Notes under the pieces: generated by a model
Database searches by the model: none
What the model saw: the letters and a program-made list of their open reading frames with translations, nothing else
What the model was told of the DNA's origin: nothing
DNA from: Negaprion brevirostris
Taxonomy: Eukaryota
Direction of reading: 5' to 3'
NCBI GenBank assembly: GCA_030324005.1
Contig: JARDVH010000179.1
Span: 5,794,776 to 5,858,775, forward strand
Length of the DNA: 64,000 bases
Program-made: the position numbers and the translations under genes
Shown here: positions 291-55,186 of the stretch, one piece after another
Position numbering within the stretch: position 1 is the first letter of the stretch
Layout: each line of letters opens with the position of its first letter

Positions 291-900
291 CTGAAAACAT
301 GAGCTGATACCACACAAATGCTGCAGCTTCACACCATTCAACAGTAGGGCAGACAACATAACGCTGCTGTTAGCTTCTGGAAAGCAGAGTGGCAGAACTC
401 AAGGAGGACTTTTGAATTTGAGTTTAACCACATGTCTGACACCTTATCTGAAGGTGCTGTATCTCCTGCGCATAAAAAACTGCAAATGCCCATTAGCCTC
501 ACCCTTATTTTAACAGGAAAATCTGCGCCAACGCCTTCAACTCTCCAGCTGCACTCTCGGATAAAGGGCTGCAGGTCAATGCTGGACTTGAACAGACAGC
601 TCCAGCCATCACTGAGTATTTATTAGCACACGGCAGGGAAGGAAACAGATGGGAGAGACCTTTATTCCCTCTGCTTGACGCCCCTCAGCATCAGCAAGGC
701 ATTTCCTGGCACCCATAGTGCTAAAGATTCCCTATCTACCAGTAAGTGCTGGCAGGTGCTAAGGTGGGATGACAAGTGCAAAAATGGGTTTGACAAAATG
801 TGGAAATAAGCTCTTCAGGTCAAATATTATTTACATTTGACAACTGAACTGAGGCAAAACACAGGTTTGATGATTCTACAACGCTAAGAGCTAGACTTGC

Positions 901-1127
901 CTTTGCCTCTCCTGTTCCATTCGGAGACGTTCTTTCTCAGCTGCCTCCTGCTGCATTTTACGGAACTCCTCCTGTGCTTTCAGTGCCTTTTCTCGCTCCT
1001 CCTTCTCTCGTGCCGCCCGTCGAAATTGCTCAAAGCTGTCGCTCGACGATTTTGCCGTAGATGATGGAGTAGAAGGTGTCTTTTTAACTAGACTTGCCCA
1101 AGAACCCATGTTCTTGATCTTAAGATC
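901..1127 (-). CDS. brd4: BRD4 long-isoform exon ([13 protein letters not shown]...[22 protein letters not shown]...)
   Basis: ctttag|GAT acceptor; ends at AG|gcaagt (GC donor), 227 nt phase 0-2; KNMGSWASL is diagnostic of BRD4 rather than BRDT. Remaining CTM exons lie left of the window. Confidence 0.93.
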
Positions 1128-14839: not shown

Positions 14840-14901
14840 CTTCTTCTGCTCCCGTCCAGAGCGACTCTTGTGGCTGCCATGTTTGGCTTTAGGTGGCATC
14901 T
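14840..14901 (-). CDS. brd4: BRD4 first long-isoform exon (EMPPKAKHGSHKSRSGREQKK)
   Basis: cttctgcag|AG acceptor, AAGAAG|gtagg donor, 62 nt phase 1-0; human EMAPKSKKKGHPGREQKK. Confidence 0.93.
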
Positions 14902-30800: not shown

Positions 30801-32314
30801 TCATCCAACATTATATAAATAATTAACAGATGACAGCTTCTCTCGGTGGAATGACATACAATCTTTTTAAGGGCATTTGGGAGGTAAGTGCTCCCTGGAT
30901 CTACATTGAAAAGTTCTAACATTTGAAATGTCCCAAAGCTGTAAAGCAAGCATAAACGAAACTTGACCACAATAACCTACATGGTAGACCAGTTCAAAAT
31001 GTTGGGTTTCAAATTGTGAAGTATTCTCCCATGGTCAATGTAAGTACAGAATGCAGGATAGGGAAGAATTACAAGCCTGTGCTTCAGTCAAGGGACTCAG
31101 AGTACAGCTCCCGAGTCAAAGGACGTAGACCGAATTATAGCTTTTGCAGTAAAAACTGTTATAGGATACAAGGTAAGAGAGATGATCACTGGGTCTTACA
31201 GAATGGCTCTTTGTCAAAATGTTGCACAATGGCTCTTTGTTATGGGTGATGAGAGTTGGTTAAGAAGGTCCAACATTGTCACAGATGCACAACAGGTATT
31301 TTCTGAAGATGATTAGGTGCACATATCTCGGTAGGACATTACATGATTGCAATTTTGTAGACTGTCACCAATCCATGTTAAATTGCACAAGTCTGAGTTC
31401 CAGCCTTGCAACTAGTTAAGTAGGGAGCATTTTCTACAAAACCAAGAATAATTTTACAAATTACATAGCTTACTTGCTATTCTTGTGGTAGCTTCGTTGA
31501 GTCAATGGCCGTGAGGGTGAAGTGATAGAACGCAGGACCTAGATAATTCCTGCCAATTGTGGCAGTTGAGGGATTTATCACAAGAACTGTAGCCCACCAC
31601 ACTTTTTTCCTCCTTTTGCTGTGTTTTTACTGTTTATAGAAACTATATTTAAAAAACACACATGTATCTTATTGCGCAAGAGTCCACAGTGCACAAGGAA
31701 TTGGGGAATATCTTGAACCTGCCCCAGTGACCATAGAATGTATTTTGTTCGCACCAACCATGTGGAACACTACACGGACTGCGCACAGGCGTACACCATG
31801 TTTTGTAAAGTGCATTCCGTGTGTTCTGACCAGAAATCCTTCATAAATTTTAGATAGGTGAAGCAAATTTCATTTGCCGGCAGTCAAGCGTTGATCTTTC
31901 GTAAGATGAGAGGTAGAAAAAAAAACATAATCCTGTTTTTTTCCAAGAAGAATTTTTTACAAATCTCTGTTGAAGCTGCCTTATAACTTAAGTGCAATTC
32001 AAGCTCTTTATGGCTTTCCATGGTCATTAATGTCAGCATTATTGCACTTTTTTTTCTCTATGCAGCTTTAACAGACTAATCGCTAAATTTCTTCCAGACA
32101 TGTTGATCTTTTAACACAAGAGACTATTGGCAAAGAGCTCCAACTCCATTAATCGGACAAACTGTATGTATTGCAGCTGTATTTAGAAGTCACTGGTTGT
32201 CGCTTGGAAACTATCGTGGGTGGTGAATGGAGAGTAGGTGGGGGCAGAGGGGAAATGGACACCACCAGCGCCAGGCTAGCAACAGGCTCAATTACTGAAA
32301 GAATTGACGCTAAC

Positions 32315-32437
32315 CTGTTTCAGAGTCGTTGCTCTCAGAGGAGCTGGAGTCACTGCTACTGTCTGACTCAGAAGAGCTGCTGCTGCTTCTCATCCTTGAG
32401 GGGCCTCCCACATCCATGCTTATGTCATGCTTCTCAG
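32315..32437 (-). CDS. brd4: BRD4 coding exon: SEED/CPS serine-rich tail (AEKHDISMDVGGPSRMRSSSSSSES...NDSET)
   Basis: ttttgtgcag|CT acceptor, GAAACAG|gttag donor, 123 nt phase 1-1; equivalent to human AEKVDV...SEDSET exon; read-through gives G-stop (TAG 32312-32310). Confidence 0.95.
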
Positions 32438-44515: not shown

Positions 44516-46897
44516 TTCCCCCCTGAGCTTTCCCAATGAAAGATGGAGTCACTGCAGTGCATGAAGTTAAGAGGAACAATAACACTGCCATGTGGCACAA
44601 GAGGTACCTACCGCAAGATCAAAATGAATTAGGATTGAGCACATAAATCAAGTCACCCTTCACAGCTTCTCCAAGCAGCTATTCTTAATGTTTGAGCACC
44701 AATACCAAGGGTTACCTGCCAGTGATCATACCCAATCCTCTGTCCACCTAACCTTAGAACATGCCAACTTTATGGCTGGAGTGACTGGAAAGTAAACTGG
44801 AGCAAGAACATTGGCTGCTTTTTAACCATAAATAGGCCAGGAGCAAGAAGCCAAAAGAAGCATTCTTATCACTCAGAGGCAGAGTGAAACGTAGGCCTGA
44901 AACTGAAACTAGAAGACAAGTAAAAATTTTTCAAAAGGCTGCATTAAAATACAAATCTCAAAAAGCCACACAAATCTTGAGATTGTGTTCTAACTCGTGC
45001 TTCTGAATTTGTGTTGTGTTTGGTAGGGTTCAGATTTAACACGAAGACTGAAAATAAACCTATGTCATATTGGATAACTGTTTTGCTGGACGAGGCTGGA
45101 TTTCCAGTCTTCAACTGATTTCAGTTAGATCAACTGTTAGTGTACTAAATTATCCTAATAGGTCTGATCGATGCCTTGGGACCGCCAGTGATGCATAAAG
45201 AGTCAGTGCCCTCAGGGAAATGAAAAGAGGATTAAGACAAGACAAGCAATATGATGCTTGTGAAATCCAAATTACACAGTACCTCATTGCTCTTGATTTC
45301 ATTTCCAAAATGCCACAAATTATTCAGAATTTTGCAACATCGAAGGCTACCAGATAAGCTATAGTTACCAAGGAAACGAGTTGTCTGATCTCACTAGTTC
45401 CAAATAAACAAGAGTGCAATTCTGCAACACAGCATACAAAACTGTGCAGAATGCCTCAAACAGGCTTTAACTGGACAACCCTATCTAAAGAAAAGATAAA
45501 CTTCAACCTTCGAAACAACTCCCAAGTCAGTGAGTGACTGTATCGCAATGACAACAGGAACAATGAAATCAGTCAGAAGTTTCATTAGCTTATGACCAGC
45601 CACCTGTAGGGAGTGAAAAATCAGGAGTGGAGGATGGAAAACCCGGTGAGATAATGCATCATAACTCTCTGCTAAATAGTGCAACTTAAATTCAATACGA
45701 AAACTTCGAGGAATGTTTAGCTCATGATGGAAACAGTCTGTAGACATACTGAAAAGGAAAATTGGGGTAAAGGTTGCATCACACAGACTTGAAACATTCA
45801 TCCCTTTAAATACCCACAATGAGAGCTGCAGTCTATAACAACCATTAAGAGTAAGAATAAATGATTTTGTGGCCTTAGGAGGCTGTGCATCAAACGTGGG
45901 TTGCTTCATAAACTCTTCAAAACATCCAATGTTGGCCAAACAAAAGTGCAGTACAAATGCTTTTAAAGTGCAAAAGCTGAAAGCATACCATTTCCATACC
46001 ACAATGACAAAAGATGCACTGTCCATAACTTGGCCCAATATTACTTTTCCCTGGGATGCGGGGGAGGAAGAAAGAAAGGAATATGCTTTTATCAAGCCTT
46101 GGTTATCATACTGTTGAGACCAGGACATGAAATTCTCGTGTTACCAGATGTGCAAATCATTCATTGCTGGTTTCGTGAAAGAACCAGAGGGAAAAAAAGC
46201 AACTTCAATTCCAATCAACTCAGTTTGGTAAAACAGACAAGGCTCTGGCTCAGTGCATCATTAGTCTCCTACTTTATGTAAAATATTTAGATACAAGTAT
46301 TGCCATATTAGCAAGGATCATCATTACAATTAATTGATTACATGAATTTTAACTCTGATTCAATTTGTAGGTGAGGCTGCTGTTCTTGAATTAATAAGAT
46401 TGTTCATTATAAAGAGTAACAGTACCATGTAGACTTATTCATTCATAGCTCAGTTTCAGGAAATCAAAACATCTTACCCCCACCTGCAATTAAATCATTT
46501 GAATGAAAAAGTACCATGTTAGCTTTGGTACATAACCAGAAATAAACATTTTTTTTTTAAAATCACTTTCAACCCAGTAAACCAAATTAACTAGATTTAC
46601 CACCATACCTCTCAACTGTACTGTTTTAAAATCACTGTGCCCCAACAGGAAGCTTCACCACTGAGCCAAGTAGCAGCGCAGTGCAAGCAAGTAAAATTAG
46701 CCAAAATGGCGACTCTACAGATGCCACACTGCCTCCAAACTAGAGCCTGAATTCCAGCATTCAACATGTTGCAGTTTGAGAGGTATGTGCACCGTAAAAT
46801 CAAGGCTATTTATTATATGTACAAACAAATTGACTTTAGCCTTGACCCCAGCCTATTTTGCCTAAGGATCTACTTCACAAGGTTGCACTACACCAAC

Positions 46898-47017
46898 CTT
46901 TTCTGCCTGGTTTCTTCCCAGAGCTCAGCTGGCCGCTAACGTCATGTAACCTGGTATCCAGCTCACTCTTCGAGTCTAGCTGGAGGTCATCGTTCGATTT
47001 CCCTGGGACTTTTTTCA
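46898..47017 (-). CDS. brd4: BRD4 extra exon: post-ET coiled-coil segment ([40 protein letters not shown])
   Basis: tttgcag|TG acceptor, AAAAG|gttggt donor, 120 nt phase 1-1, open in the frame set by flanking exons; matches BRD2/BRD3 [13 protein letters not shown] motif. Confidence 0.85.
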
Positions 47018-50000
47018 CTGCAAACAGCATCACACAACAAGATTTGGACCAAACACTTTGGTACCGGTACACAGGTACAACACAGTGAATAAAATTACTC
47101 TAGTTTGGCACGTGGGATCAGATGCAAGGTTTCTGCAAATTTAAAAAGAAAAAAGAAAGAAAGCAGCTGTAGGAAAACAAAAACCCATTCACAGTTTGTG
47201 ACTGCTCTTGAAGGCCATCAATCTGAAGAGACTTTTAACAAATATTGGGAAGCATATGGATTTTGCAGTAGTGAGGTCAGAGTCTTTTATTAACAGATTA
47301 AATCACTTTAGGGTAAAAATATAGGGCTCAATTCATTGCTAGTGACCTCAGTTGTGCTGCTGTAAACAGCTGCGTAGGGAAAACCAGGCCAGAGGCTAGA
47401 GTAATCCCTGGTTGCTGCTTCCAATTAAATTACAAAGGGCAATATCAAATGTAAGCTATAGCCAGCACAGGGATTTCTCAAGGATTCTGGAACAGAAAAG
47501 AAAATTAAAACTATCTGCTCCTGCCACTTAAAATATGAGACCAAGTAAACCATTTCATTTTAATAGCTTCCCCCCCCCACACCCCACCCGATGGCAAGAG
47601 GATAGAAGACACAAAAGCCTCCACAGCCACCATAAACCAGCTGTCACAAGGGCCAGCGAATTCCATGCTCTCCGAGGAAGTATTTAGTATTTCCCCACAG
47701 TGACACAGTTGATATTATGAACTCAGCACCGTGAGTGACAAAAGCCCCACCAAGTGGCATGACAGAAACTGTGATTCAGTACACCACCTGACTTTTTGTT
47801 GGGCATATTATTTTCCCTGCAGGCAATCACAAATATCTTCACACACAAATGGTTTTGCACAAAGACAGGTTTAATATTAAATCATGACATCACTACTCTG
47901 CAATTAGCGAATTTTGCAAAATTACAATAAAAAATTCAATTTCACAGGAAGAGATAATCAGGTTCAACATTAAAAAGGAAACAGTGTACCTCTGAAAACC
48001 AGCTGTTGCTTTGACCCCTGGTTAAGAAGCCCAATAATGTCATTGCTCCACCCGTGCATGCCCATACACAAGTGGATATGATAGAACAGAGCAGATCATT
48101 TACCATGATCTGTAAATGATCACACCCAGTGCAAAAAAGTTCAAATCATCTCCTAGCAGGGTAAGAACACCACATACAACACAGAAGAACAAGATACAGA
48201 AGAACAGATCACCCAAATCATGTTGGTTTAGAACATAACAGAACCCATTCAGTTAGAGATGTAATGAAAGGCATTTTGTATTAGTAATCATGTTCACTGT
48301 CCCAACACCATTATTTTTGCACTAAACCCTGTAATATTAATCTACAAACCAATTAATGGTCTAGCTTATTTATAAATGCTCAAATTCTCAAAAATGCATT
48401 TTTCTTTTTAACAGCATGGAGAGGCACATTTCCTCAAGTACTGAGTAGTGCACAGAAAGTCCCTTACCCAACCCAACCCAACCCCATACATACAATCTCA
48501 AATGTGGTTATCAATGGCCTTTATGGCAAAATTTACAATCATAGCCTGGAGTTGCAAGAACCGAGTTGTGTGTGTGTGGAATCTTAAATGTTTGAGTGTT
48601 TAAAAGTTGCCTTCAGGGCAGGAGAAAAATACTGTGGCCTGGGAGCTGGAAGGAACCCCGAACCACAATCACTAATAGACTCACAGATGTTCAATGATGT
48701 TGTCTGCCAAAAAAAAGCATGCGAATTCCAAGCCCAGTCACACAGCCTCCGTCAAATCATTGGCATGGANNNNNNNNNNNNNNNNNNNNNNNNNNNNNNN
48801 NNNNNNNNNNNNNNNNNNNNNNNNNNNNNNNNNNNNNNNNNNNNNNNNNNNNNNNNNNNNNNNNNNNNNATTGGCATGGAAAACACCAAATTAACAAGCA
48901 GCTGGTCAGAGTTGCTCCATTTTCCCCCTACAGGGATACAATTTTTATTTTTAAGCACTTGTCATGTGGACAGTACATTTAATTTGGAAACGCACATGAA
49001 CACTCAGTTAGAATCGAGGTGTGCAAGGCTGTTGACCCACAATTTTCCCATTTCTATTTATTTCTCATTTCATATAAATAAATAAACTACATATTTTGTG
49101 AAATTTTTCAGATGGTGACTTTGCTTCAGACAATGGCAAAAGATGTAATATGGCATGACAGTTTCAAAGAGAAATGGGGGGAGAAAAGCGAAGGAAAAAG
49201 GTTGAGCATTTTGTTTGTTGATTTTATTTTAGTCAAGCTTATGAAAACCAAGCCTAATTCCACAATCCAATCCTAAAGAATGAGCTAATTTTGAAAGCAG
49301 CCATTGTGTACAGATGCTACACAATTTTATACAGCAGTCATCTCAGGCCCACAACTGCAAGAGTTGCGCTCTCACTGTTCACATGATTAACACTGACCAA
49401 GTGCCATGTACATGACTACGAATGGTGTGTATGCATTCCTGCCTTGACAAGATATTAGGCTTGCTGGNNNNNNNNNNNNNNNNNNNNNNNNNNNNNNNNN
49501 NNNNNNNNNNNNNNNNNNNNNNNNNNNNNNNNNNGGGGGGGGGTGGGTGGTGGTGTTAAAAGAAGTTGTTTCCCCTCAAATATATTCAATCACAATAATG
49601 TCCTATGCACTTAAGACCAACGGCAACACTGAATAGAAATCCAAGAGATTTGATAACCTCAATTATCTTCAACAATTTCCCCTACAAGTTCCAAGAAAAA
49701 TCTACGCAGTCAGCTAATCGTGCAGTGGCAGTAATGTGTTGGTAAATGGGGACACAGATTTGGCTTTGCAGCTGTATCCACAGTGAGAACCCAACCATTA
49801 CCAGGCATTCTGGATGGTGCAACACGAGTAGGCAAAGACGGGAAGAAAAAATAACGTGAATAATCTTGGAACATTCATATGCTCCACAAAGGCAGGAGAC
49901 TGATAGGTTATTTTGGACAAAAGAATCAAGGGATATGGAGATAGGATTGGAAAGTGGAGTTAGATCAATCATGATCTAATTGAATGGCTCAAGGGACAGT

Positions 50001-51249
50001 ATGGCCTACCCTGCTATTTCTTATGTTCAACTTGGATCATAAAGAGAAGGGTTAAGTAATGAGACTGGGAACCACATTCTACCATCACTGAAATTTGGGG
50101 TTTGATGCACCTTGGATGGATGGGCTTAAAGTCCCTCCTATCATTGCTCAAAACAAAATTAGTTTCTGTAGTTTTGACTCTCAGTTGATACAGGCCCACA
50201 AGAACAAAATTAGCTATAAATTGGTAATCTCAAAGGACACAAAGATAATTCATGCAGAAAACAGAGGATTCTGAAGCTGCAGAGGACTGATTTGAAAGTA
50301 AATAAGGAGACTTTAACTCTTCATCTGGATACATACGAATGAGGAGAATTTGATGTTGACCCTAAGTTTTAACACAAAGGGTCCCATTCCTCTGCATAAG
50401 CATCTCCTTCCACATGAGCACAAAAATGTGAAATGTAATTTTAAATTTTTATTCATCAGACAAATTAAATCTTCGATTTCCTGACATGTTTGTGACCAGA
50501 CAGCTGAAAACTTTTGGAAAACAAAATGGGATGCGCCTTGCAGAGAGCAGCAGCAAGATTAGATTTGATTTTAGGCTGGTATTTGTCCAGAGGGAGTTTT
50601 TGAAATAGACTTTTACTGTAATTTCTCTGGACCTTATGGGCTCAAAATTCATTTAACTAGACAAAACTTTGGGCCAGTCACCTCTAACCTTCAATCAAAC
50701 AGCGCCAACATTTCCATAATTTGAGATTCATTAGTTGCTTGACAGCAATAACCAATTCTGCATTTGGCCATGTGCAATAACTTAATCTGATTTCCAGCAC
50801 AGCCAAGTTTTTGGGCCAGAGGAAGCTTCCAATTCATTTTTGTGGGTCAACATTGTTTACTACCTATCCTAAGAGACCAATCTTTTGTATTATAGTGCAA
50901 TAAAATATGTGCAACTGCATAAGCTAAACACACCAAGTAACCTGGCCATAGAATGAGGCTGCAAGTGAGATCTACAGAAATTAGTTTGTCTTATTTGAGA
51001 CAAATGCTTGCTGTGTTATGAAAGGTCAGCAGCTTCCCTCTGCATTTGTGTTGATATTTGATGCTGCATTTTTCAATTAGTTAATCTAGTCTGAATATTT
51101 GGCAAGCGCTGCTCCAAACTTCCACATAAAAGATTAGTAAAGCATCTCAACACTACCAAATAAGCAAGCATGTAGTCAAAGTGCACATTTCTCTGCATCA
51201 ATATTACAAGCCAATTGATTCATTTTGGTAGGAAGAACTCACGACATTA

Positions 51250-51950
51250 CAGATATAAAGTAAAACGTACAAATCTAAAGGGGGGGAATAAAGAGCAGAA
51301 GGGCAGGCATGCATGTGCATAAATCATTGAAGGTGGCAGGACAGCCTGAGAGCAATTTATAAAGCAAAACCCCTGTCTTGGGTTTTATCAAAAGGGGGAT
51401 AAAAGAGTACAAAAGCAAAAAGCGTTATGAAATATTGGTCTGACTTCAACTGAATATTGCATCCAGGTCAGGGTATGACAACTTAGGAGGAAGGATGTGA
51501 AGGCATTAAAAAGGTGTATTAAAAATTCATTAAAAAGGCCGCAGAGGTTGAGGACCTTCCGTTATGTAGAAAGACTGAAGATATTGGGATGTTCTTGGAA
51601 AAGTGACAGTTGAAAGGAGATTAGATAGAGCCATTCAAAATCATGAGGGTCTGCAAAGATATAGATAGGGAGAAACTGCTCCCACTGAAATGGCTGAGAA
51701 CAAAAGGACCCAGGATTTAAAATAATTGGAAAAAGAAGCAATGGCAATATGAGGAAAAACTCTCATGCAGCAAGTGGTTAGGATCTGAAAGTCAAGACAG
51801 GGTCAACTAGGGCTTTCAAAAGGGAATAGGATCCTATGCAAAGGAAACGTTTGCCAAACTTTACTGTGTATATAGACAGGAAATGGCATTAAATGAATTG
51901 TGCCTTCAGCAGGCGAGCAAAGGCATATGAGCTGAACCTGCTACAGCCAT
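51250..51950 (+). mobile_element. Old CR1-type LINE 3' region
   Basis: gaatattgcatccagg..aggaaggatgtgaaggcatt..gagaaactgctcccact motifs. Confidence 0.65.
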
Positions 51951-53139: not shown

Positions 53140-53355
53140 CAATAAAAACCAAAGTGCTGGGGAAAATACTCAGCAGGTCTGGCAGTATCTGTGGAGAGTG
53201 AAACCGAGTTAACGTTTTAAATCCAATATAACTCTTCTTTGGAAGAAGTTGGACATAAAATCATTTTTCCCGCAGCAGGTGCTGCCTGACCTAGGTTTTT
53301 CTCCCAGCACTCTCTTTATTTCAGATTTCCAACATCCACAACATTTTGCTTTTAG
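53140..53355. mobile_element. Palindromic Penelope-like pLTR remnant
   Basis: aataaa..gtgctggggaaaatactcagcaggtctggcag / ctgcctgacctaggtttttctcccagcac..tttatt; decayed core aagaagagttatattggatttAAAACGTT on minus. Confidence 0.65.
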
Positions 53356-54829
53356 ATGGATGTAATTTGATTTTGTCTAGTTAACCTATTTCCTCCTCTG
53401 TTGGTGACATTAATTTCCAATTAATTATTAACTTATAGCTGACAGATAATTTCCCCCAATCCTTATTCATCAATTCCCATAAAAGTTGCCCCTTTATGTA
53501 CTGAGTAGTCAGATACGGTGCATGTAAATAGTTGAACAAAGCCTTTCATCGCCCAAGGTCTGCTGCTCTTCCCTGTGTCAGCTAGAACAGTTTGCTAAAT
53601 ATTCCCCCGTGTTGTTTTAAATCCTCTCCCTGGGCCTTTGCTTTTGGTGGATGGCAATGAAGTACACATGCGTAAGGAAGGCTGGGACTTCACAGTGAAG
53701 ATGTTGGCAACTGATACATCAGCCAGTACTTTTAGTTTGTGATAGTGCTGTATGCAAATTTCTGGTTACACTTCACCAAGATATACCATACAGAATTACA
53801 AAAATCTTGTGAGGGGGAGCACAACCATTCTAGCTATCAGACCCACAATGGTGGTGGTGTTGCTGTGGGGAGCGAGCGAGCAATGATACATCTGTTGAGC
53901 AAACAGGAAATAGTCACTAGCTGCCACGCACAAGAACAACTCATTCTGACAAGACATGGGGCAGTTGCCATGACACTTTATTGCACCTACTGCTGCAGAG
54001 GATAGGGAGCCAAAGGAAAACAAAATAAAGGATCTTTGAAACAATGAAGCAGCAACTTACAGCATTACAACATGCAGCAATGCTGCTCATGTTTCACCTT
54101 CATTACTGAACATAAAAGGTAATATTCTGGGGGCGTGGGGGGGTGCAGTATCATGTTTATTAAAAATGGAAGACTGCGCTCAATAGATTCAAATTGTCCA
54201 CTGAGGAAGTAAACTCATCTAGTTATCAGTTACTATACACAAGGGATTGAAATTCAGTACAGAAAACTACACAGTCTGATACCACTGGCACTAATTTCTG
54301 ACATGTTTCTTAACAAACCTCCATCAATCTTTGCTTAAATTACTTCCAACCATAAAATACACCTCTAGTGTTTTCTGCTTTTACTTCTGACTTTACTGTT
54401 TTTACTACAGCATTCGCAAGTTTCTTATTTTAAGCTAATGACTAGTCACTGTTTCAACCAACCATTCTTGGCACAAAGATAGTGCATTGACAACACAGAA
54501 TGGCAGCGACATGGCTTAGGGCCAAAAAAGAAACTAGCATCCTAGAAACAAGTCAACCCCATATTCGTCTTGTACACNNNNNNNNNNNNNNNNNNNNNNN
54601 NNNNNNNNNNNNNNNNNNNNNNNNNNNNNNNNNNNNNNNNNNNNNNNNNNNNNNNNNNNNNNNNNNNNNNNNNNNNNNNNNNNNNNNNNNNNNNNNNNNN
54701 NNNNNNNNNNNNNNNNNNNNNNNNNNNNNNNNNNNNNNNNNNNNNNNNNNNNNNNNNNNNNNNNNTAAAAGCATTGGATTTATTGTGCTATCAAAATATC
54801 AATTATTTTTTTTTAATCCGCGAGGGCTA

Positions 54830-55186
<357 letters not shown>

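Follow-up and report, generated by a model that had tools for sequence, protein, structure and literature searches.

A coiled coil (CC) directly behind the ET domain, the ETCC module of BRD2, BRD3 and BRDT, was reportedly described by Werner et al. in 2020. Further background on this module is given in PMC11939847, PMC8446420, PMC13083254 and bioRxiv 10.1101/2025.09.20.676678, and according to PMC11939847, BRD4 as described in mammals has no CC behind its ET domain. The 2025 preprint reports that TFIID binding was mapped to a BRD2 fragment containing the CC, and it supposes that BRD4 gained a P-TEFb domain and then lost an initiation function (bioRxiv 10.1101/2025.09.20.676678). The functional difference between BRD2/3 and BRD4 has been mapped to few features; the CC is among them, and reviews credit it with BRD2-like rescue. 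The loss of an exon that is partly skipped elsewhere is a known pattern. According to PMC12992808, exon 3 of TNNI3 is lost in some lineages and partly skipped or constitutive in others. The case reported here is similar in that one exon is constitutive, partly skipped or lost depending on the gene or lineage, but it spans different paralogues and a much older divergence, and it involves a remodelled peptide.

In this study, we examined an exon of the BRD4 gene, which encodes a major transcription regulator, of Negaprion brevirostris within a window of 64,000 nt (the whole stretch of DNA analysed). The CC module is known; no prior description of a CC in any BRD4 was found in the openly accessible literature searched, and public shark gene models may well include the exon. 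The finding concerns one gene's history in detail and represents no new type of system.

The exon and the gene that carries it

The features of the locus are listed in Table 1. When the sequence was re-read, the coordinates, strand, length, splice sites, phase and peptide given by an earlier sequence-only reading were all reproduced. The acceptor reads ..TTTGCAG, the donor reads AAG/GTTGGT, and the frame is open. The exon is separated by 7,820 nt from the end of the ET exon (54838) and by 14,460 nt from the start of the SEED exon (32437). It had been claimed that the exon is symmetric and that its skipping yields the human-type KPQ-AEK junction. This was borne out, as the frame is kept in both joined forms and skipping gives KPQ-AEK, a junction also found in yak, horse, gecko and newt BRD4. 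The donor of the CC exon scored 1.85 compared to 6.43 for that of the ET exon on a donor-site matrix. This is a mild hint only, because another, constitutive-looking donor in the window scored even lower with the same matrix (0.76). No RBFOX or QKI motif was found within 300 nt of the CC exon. A possible 6-nt microexon (TTGCAG/GTGGGG/GTAAGA; 46478-46483, minus strand) lies 415 nt 3' of the CC exon and was without cover in the runs compared. The window contains 16 assembly gaps, none of them at the CC exon, and interspersed repeats in the ET-CC intron (51200-51790 and 53160-53360) showed very deep contig cover.

Table 1. Features of the shark BRD4 locus in window coordinates
Feature	Position	Strand	Remarks
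Retained post-ET coiled-coil (CC)-derived BRD4 exon	47017-46898	(-)	120 nt, phase 1-1, 40 codons; likely cassette exon
ET-domain exon (PF17035), splice partner 5' of CC exon	54838..55124	(-)	54838-47017 joint in run X1
SEED exon (serine/acid-rich), splice partner 3' of CC exon	32315..32437	(-)	123 nt; loose end in run X17 = CC exon
Intron flank 5' of CC exon, conserved, including acceptor	47018..47234	(-)	likely splicing-regulatory
Intron flank 3' of CC exon, including weak donor AAG/GTTGGT	46768..46897	(-)	X1 piece 46768-46927: 18 differences
SEED-donor read-through to stop (Gly, then TAG)	32310..32314	(-)	contigs 6.0, 7.3 and 7.5 kb into intron (X1, X11, X12)
Next exon of long isoform, start	14872..14901	(-)	exact match of loose end in 4/4 runs
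Conserved C-terminal-region exon	900..1127	(-)	best matches BRD4, 64-91% identity; 51% to BRDT-like paralogue

Judged by its place, phase and sequence, the exon is the post-ET CC exon of the BET family, as had been proposed. A search of the 2.69-Gb genome with its peptide gave only three other matches, each located directly behind the ET exon of another BET gene (identity 54, 54 and 45%; E 2e-4, 2.7e-4 and 0.085). The paralogue exons are also in phase 1-1. Those of BRD2 and BRDT are 120 nt long, that of BRD3 has 129 nt, and their nucleotide identity to the BRD4 exon is 61-65%. The peptide also matched residues 100-131, the chain end, of the solved BRD2 structure 6cui_A (E 5.6e-5). The paralogue-only matches, the 6cui_A match and a spliced 54838-47017 contig show that the peptide is not a chance product. 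The exon shares with the CC exons of BRD2, BRD3 and BRDT its position as an exon of its own, in phase 1-1 and placed between those for ET and SEED, the hydrophobic core L-x3-L-x2-V-x3-L and the DVSGQL motif; it differs from them in belonging to BRD4, in being likely skippable and in its long introns (7.8 and 14.5 kb). In a collection of 5.8 billion sequences, the peptide gave one hit among six candidates, a bat BRD3. Among the 50% representatives, 15 matches were obtained, of which 14 were canonical CCs and the remaining one a repeat protein; the changes of shark BRD4 occurred in none of them. Pfam has no family for the peptide, and the ESM Atlas returned short clusters only, with a recognition value below the useful level. 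The CC exon of shark BRD3 (C149:692009-692122) is itself somewhat divergent, with MSGQP for VSGQL and a profile score of 69.5.

The gene in the window is BRD4. The genome has four ET exons. In a tblastn exon map, the window and 80 kb upstream contained two bromodomains, motif B and ET in BRD4 order, and with gecko, newt and gar BRD4 as queries, the N-terminal, bromodomain, ET, proline-rich and C-terminal exons were found in order. The ET domain matched PF17035 (E 1.2e-29), and the long proline/glutamine-rich tail ends in the C-terminal domain PF17105 (E 2.9e-7) at C179:5791700, which lies 3 kb outside the window. A tree of 25 BET sequences and 328 columns was built without a named BRDT, and its shark rows are tblastn pieces with some border errors; in it, the window gene was sister to eight bony-vertebrate BRD4 proteins with a support of 99; its identity to bony-vertebrate BRD4 over these conserved columns was 82-90%. 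Of the other three shark loci, one joined BRD2 together with skate and catshark (support 97), one joined BRD3 (100), and the third stood by itself next to BRD4 (79). Five PF04988 (AKAP95-family) matches lie at C179:5.955-6.043 Mb, approximately 96-184 kb past the upstream end of the window. In the human genome, AKAP8 and AKAP8L adjoin BRD4. The assignment to BRD4 in the sequence-only reading is therefore upheld by the tree, the C-terminal domain, the AKAP8-family neighbours and the exon map.

A CC and a C-terminal domain occur jointly in BRDT too, and the tree held no named BRDT, so we considered whether the window gene could be BRDT or a different BET, or whether a paralogue fragment had been misassembled here to give the exon. 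This is extremely unlikely: the locus at C84:13.7 Mb, alone beside BRD4 in the tree, is separate, possesses a CC exon of its own as well as the second C-terminal domain, and is assigned to BRDT by elimination. The window gene itself clusters with BRD4, transcripts connect the CC exon to the exons of its own gene, and its DNA is too little like that of the paralogues.

Several further observations were made on these loci. The shark BRD2 locus shares 96% identity with BRD2 of skate and catshark, and its CC reads ELALEKK as in named sharks, with ELAMEKK in named rays and skates. None of ten reading frames of the window was present in the protein collection. A glycine/valine-rich insert of approximately 20 residues directly before bromodomain 2, about 8.5 kb beyond the window (L015 8421-8846), is not in the aligned gecko, newt and gar proteins. 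The four BET genes lie on three contigs (C179, C149 and C84), which also carry four NOTCH NOD matches, and the BRD2-like and BRDT-like genes share one 102-Mb contig. The co-location of BET and NOTCH genes fits the MHC paralogous regions.

Inclusion and probable skipping of the exon in transcripts

The stretch was contained in 23 sequencing runs from 11 studies, and the contigs of seven of them were compared with the genome. None of the runs is recorded as RNA; some must be RNA, because spliced joints were seen in them. In run X1, one contig joined 54838 to 47017 over a GT-AG intron at a depth of 18.2. In run X17, a contig passed from the SEED exon directly into the CC exon without a branch (depth 184.5). 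These results show that the CC exon is spliced into transcripts. In run X6, the contig departed from the genome exactly at the CC donor, also without a branch, and in X2 and X3, the CC exon was present only unspliced. The ET exon was without cover in the contigs of X2, X3 and X6.

In X1, X11 and X12, the SEED contig had a length of 126 nt, consisting of the 123-nt exon and three further letters, AAG, at which it stopped. The third of these letters misfits the intron, and the intron was without cover. The ends of the ET and CC exons share exactly AAG and differ from the fourth letter, and a branch after AAG therefore indicates two upstream partners, as expected if the exon is included in some transcripts and skipped in others. 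The depths in X1 were roughly consistent with this: subtracting the inclusion contig (18.2) from the SEED exon (30.1) leaves about 12, and subtracting it together with the unspliced contig (12.3) from the ET exon (41.4) leaves about 11. Inclusion in X1 would then be roughly 60%, although contig depth is a poor measure. The branch points, seen in three of four runs, suggest that the CC exon is probably skipped in some transcripts. Of the two forms that the sequence-only reading had envisaged, inclusion was observed as joints in X1 and X17, which contradicts an exon never spliced in, and we infer skipping from these three runs.

The exon might instead be constitutive in sharks, with the branch before SEED arising from another small exon or a variant. 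The unbranched contigs of X17 and X6 agree with this, and no contig contained the ET-to-SEED junction, whose partners lie 22.4 kb apart, further than the 20 kb that the contig comparison spanned. A possible second upstream partner could come from the intron, which has 16 xAAG/GT sites, 13 of them with x other than A and mostly weak donors. However, the branch falls exactly where the ET and CC ends diverge, in three of four runs and three organisms, and the two remainders in X1 add up with skipping. In addition, the CC contig of X1 is unbroken, so no variant there explains the branch. We therefore regard a constitutive exon as very unlikely and continue with an exon that is probably optional.

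The contigs reading through the SEED donor (Table 1) likely mark where a short BRD4 isoform with an extended 3' UTR ends. This putative shark isoform resembles the mammalian P0136 and P0187, which end ETGPA-type.

A remodelled peptide in an exon under constraint

The peptide was compared with 61 distinct CC sequences from 121 proteins, numbered from the E of ELxxRL as 0. In shark BRD4, K-10, E-8, E-4, K-3, E+2, K+3 and Q+6 were replaced by N, D, D, S, D, T and H, respectively, each of which occurred in 0/61 sequences. The replaced positions are 72-100% conserved among the 61 CCs (E-4 and K-3 in 61/61, E-8 in 60/61, E+2 and Q+6 in 58/61, K-10 in 53 and K+3 in 44). In contrast, K-12, K-2, E0, L+1, R+4, L+5, D+7, V+8, G+10, Q+11 and L+12, which are 89-100% conserved, were retained. 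The hydrophobic register is kept, as the sequence-only reading had described.

As a coiled coil, the peptide is atypical. The profile score was 38.5, compared to a mean of 89.8 and a minimum of 52.9 for the CCs, and the mean helix penalty was 0.47 against 0.358 (sd 0.018, maximum 0.414). Only one E-K/R pair at i+3/i+4 was found (mean 7.1, minimum 3), the 22-residue core contained four E/K/R residues (minimum 9), and the net charge of the core was -3 compared to 0 to +1. Single-sequence AlphaFold2 predicted a helix at residues 17-32 (16 residues, pLDDT 75.9) compared to 9-31 in the BRD2 exon (23 residues, pLDDT 85.6), which amounts to a predicted loss of the first helix half; on 40 residues this is weak evidence (pTM 0.32 and 0.45) that points in the same direction as the sequence scores. 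A canonical EEK-rich helix of approximately 23 residues was accordingly rejected. The new S and D residues create three S-x-x-D/E (CK2-type) sites in the core, where 44 other cores have at most two, and a control by phosphorylation at these sites is a speculative possibility.

The exon was next compared between organisms. In X1 and X6, which come from two other organisms, it showed 0 differences in 120 nt, whereas the neighbouring ET and SEED exons in X1 had 12-14 differences in 406 nt (one-sided Fisher p 0.025-0.043, a post hoc test on one run). The X1 piece at 46990-47234 had seven differences and nine gap letters, compared to 38 differences in 193 nt at 47614-47806, and the deep intron was about 80% alike. 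The flank 5' of the acceptor was also covered in X2, X3 (to 47086) and X6, and approximately 200 nt were strongly kept. A conserved exon with a conserved intron flank is typical of regulated optional exons. These differences indicate that the CC exon is under present constraint, the protein and RNA levels being inseparable in these data; the absence of synonymous differences speaks for the RNA level. Of the idea of an intermediate of exon loss, the weak donor and the likely skipping remain, but there is no current decay.

If constraint lay on RNA splicing signals only, the peptide could be a functionless relic in a frame-neutral exon that persists in slow shark genomes. This would fit the loss of the CC-defining charged residues, the absence of differences even at third codon positions together with the conserved flank, and the weak donor; bony-vertebrate BRD4 and nine otophysan brd3a-type proteins also do without the exon. 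However, what has been kept is the invariant core of the motif's second half (L+1, R+4, L+5, D+7, V+8, L+12), which is unlikely under long neutral drift, and the length is still 120 nt. The neighbouring exons do vary in the same run, and the exon is included substantially in X1 and unbranched in X17, by rough depths. We consider a relic unlikely, and a protein-level role of the exon is, in our estimate, fairly probable.

At the other extreme, the exon could encode a fully working BRD2/3-type CC, with splicing toggling between a BRD2/3-like protein (TFIID, PAF, initiation) and classic BRD4. The peptide retains the hydrophobic register together with the second motif half, and the likely short isoform could produce the BRD2-like layout of ET, CC, SEED and stop. 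In a review (PMC8446420), CC and ET are reported to confer BRD2-like activity on short BRD4. Nevertheless, the seven conserved residues are replaced by ones never seen in the 61 CCs, the E-K/R pairs fall below the minimum of the family, and half of the helix is predicted to be lost, which makes this reading unlikely. The claimed switch to a BRD2/3-like protein is an overstatement, given that the charged residues replaced are the most invariant ones of the CC.

Taken together, our somewhat favoured explanation is that an ancestral CC exon has been kept and is spliced in shark BRD4, likely as a regulated optional exon, and that its predicted short helix would retune the binding of BRD2/3-type partners without fully restoring it. 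After the BET duplications, the BRD4 copy would have lost the EEK-rich first half of the helix and its donor would have weakened; bony vertebrates would then have lost the exon, and sharks fixed it. When included, the exon may add a short amphipathic helix directly behind the ET domain with one old CC face kept, in which K-2, E0, L+1, R+4, L+5, D+7, V+8, G+10, Q+11 and L+12 could together still form a binding surface. Where the first helix half used to be, an acidic linker that is possibly phosphorylated would retune the choice of ET partners. The skipped form would be BRD4 of the bony-vertebrate type, and a short isoform carrying the CC exon, if the two occur jointly, would have the BRD2/3 layout.

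History of the module and meaning for the BET family

Among 58 proteins with an ET end, 57 were bony-vertebrate BRD4 (yak, horse, newt, gecko, gar and 52 teleost or teleost-like), and none of them had the CC (0/57); the 58th, a bat BRD3, had it. Seven more newt BRD4 isoforms also lacked it. The BRD4 set was chosen by its C-terminal exon, independently of CC state, and consists of annotated isoforms, so that a rare exon could escape. The CC exon is thus not widespread in bony-vertebrate BRD4, and the absence of the CC as a hallmark of BRD4 is valid for bony vertebrates but fails for shark BRD4, where the exon is present and spliced; this hallmark describes the protein and is no criterion of orthology. 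The shark protein is otherwise like bony-vertebrate BRD4 in its proline-rich tail, C-terminal domain, likely short isoform and, when skipped, the tetrapod junction. The shark SEED exon retains VGGPSR of invertebrate BETs and BRD2/3, which is altered in bony-vertebrate BRD4. No chondrichthyan BRD4 protein, with the CC exon or without it, was among the 120 listed of 234 matches, nor among the 120 listed of 3,645. An ET fragment, P0124 (95%), reads into its own intron and is uninformative on the CC exon.

All 32 invertebrate (or arthropod-like) BETs with a C-terminal-domain motif among the matches listed had the CC (32/32). Since shark BRD2, BRD3 and BRDT carry it as well, the module is ancestral to the BETs, in agreement with the sequence-only reading. 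The invertebrate single BETs (fs(1)h type) and BRDT combine CC and C-terminal domain as the shark inclusion form would, but their own CC is canonical and EEK-rich. From these sequence comparisons, the simplest history would place both the CC and the C-terminal domain in the BET ancestor, with the tail lost in BRD2/3 and the CC lost in BRD4 on the bony-vertebrate side. BRD4 likely lost the CC on the bony-vertebrate stem, before the gar/tetrapod split. The loss that had been assigned to the lineage leading to human is therefore real but older and not specific to that line, as gar, teleost-type, newt, gecko and mammal proteins all lack the CC. Nine brd3a-type proteins of characiform and gymnotiform fish (P0214, P0216, P0217, P0220, P0223, P0227, P0228, P0229 and P0232) also lack the CC between ET and SEED, likely by a second, independent loss or skipping after the teleost duplication.

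The co-occurrence of the C-terminal domain and the CC in invertebrate BETs points to the reverse of the first step supposed in the 2025 preprint. Since the two occur together there, BRD2/3 would have discarded the C-terminal domain and BRD4 the CC; shark BRD4 has both. A further, doubtful reading is that shark BRD4 is the ancestral two-function BET, in which splicing and the choice of short or long isoform yield BRD2/3-like initiation, elongation and dual forms, and in which bony vertebrates fixed skipping. If true, the initiation form would be ET-CC-SEED binding TFIID or PAF, and fixed skipping would have been the last step in dividing labour between BRD2/3 and BRD4.

The shark exon is a natural seven-residue mutant at positions that are nearly invariant from arthropods to mammals. 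It is thereby well suited to show which binding partner belongs to which CC half, and it would provide a natural test of how BRD4 diverged from its sister proteins.
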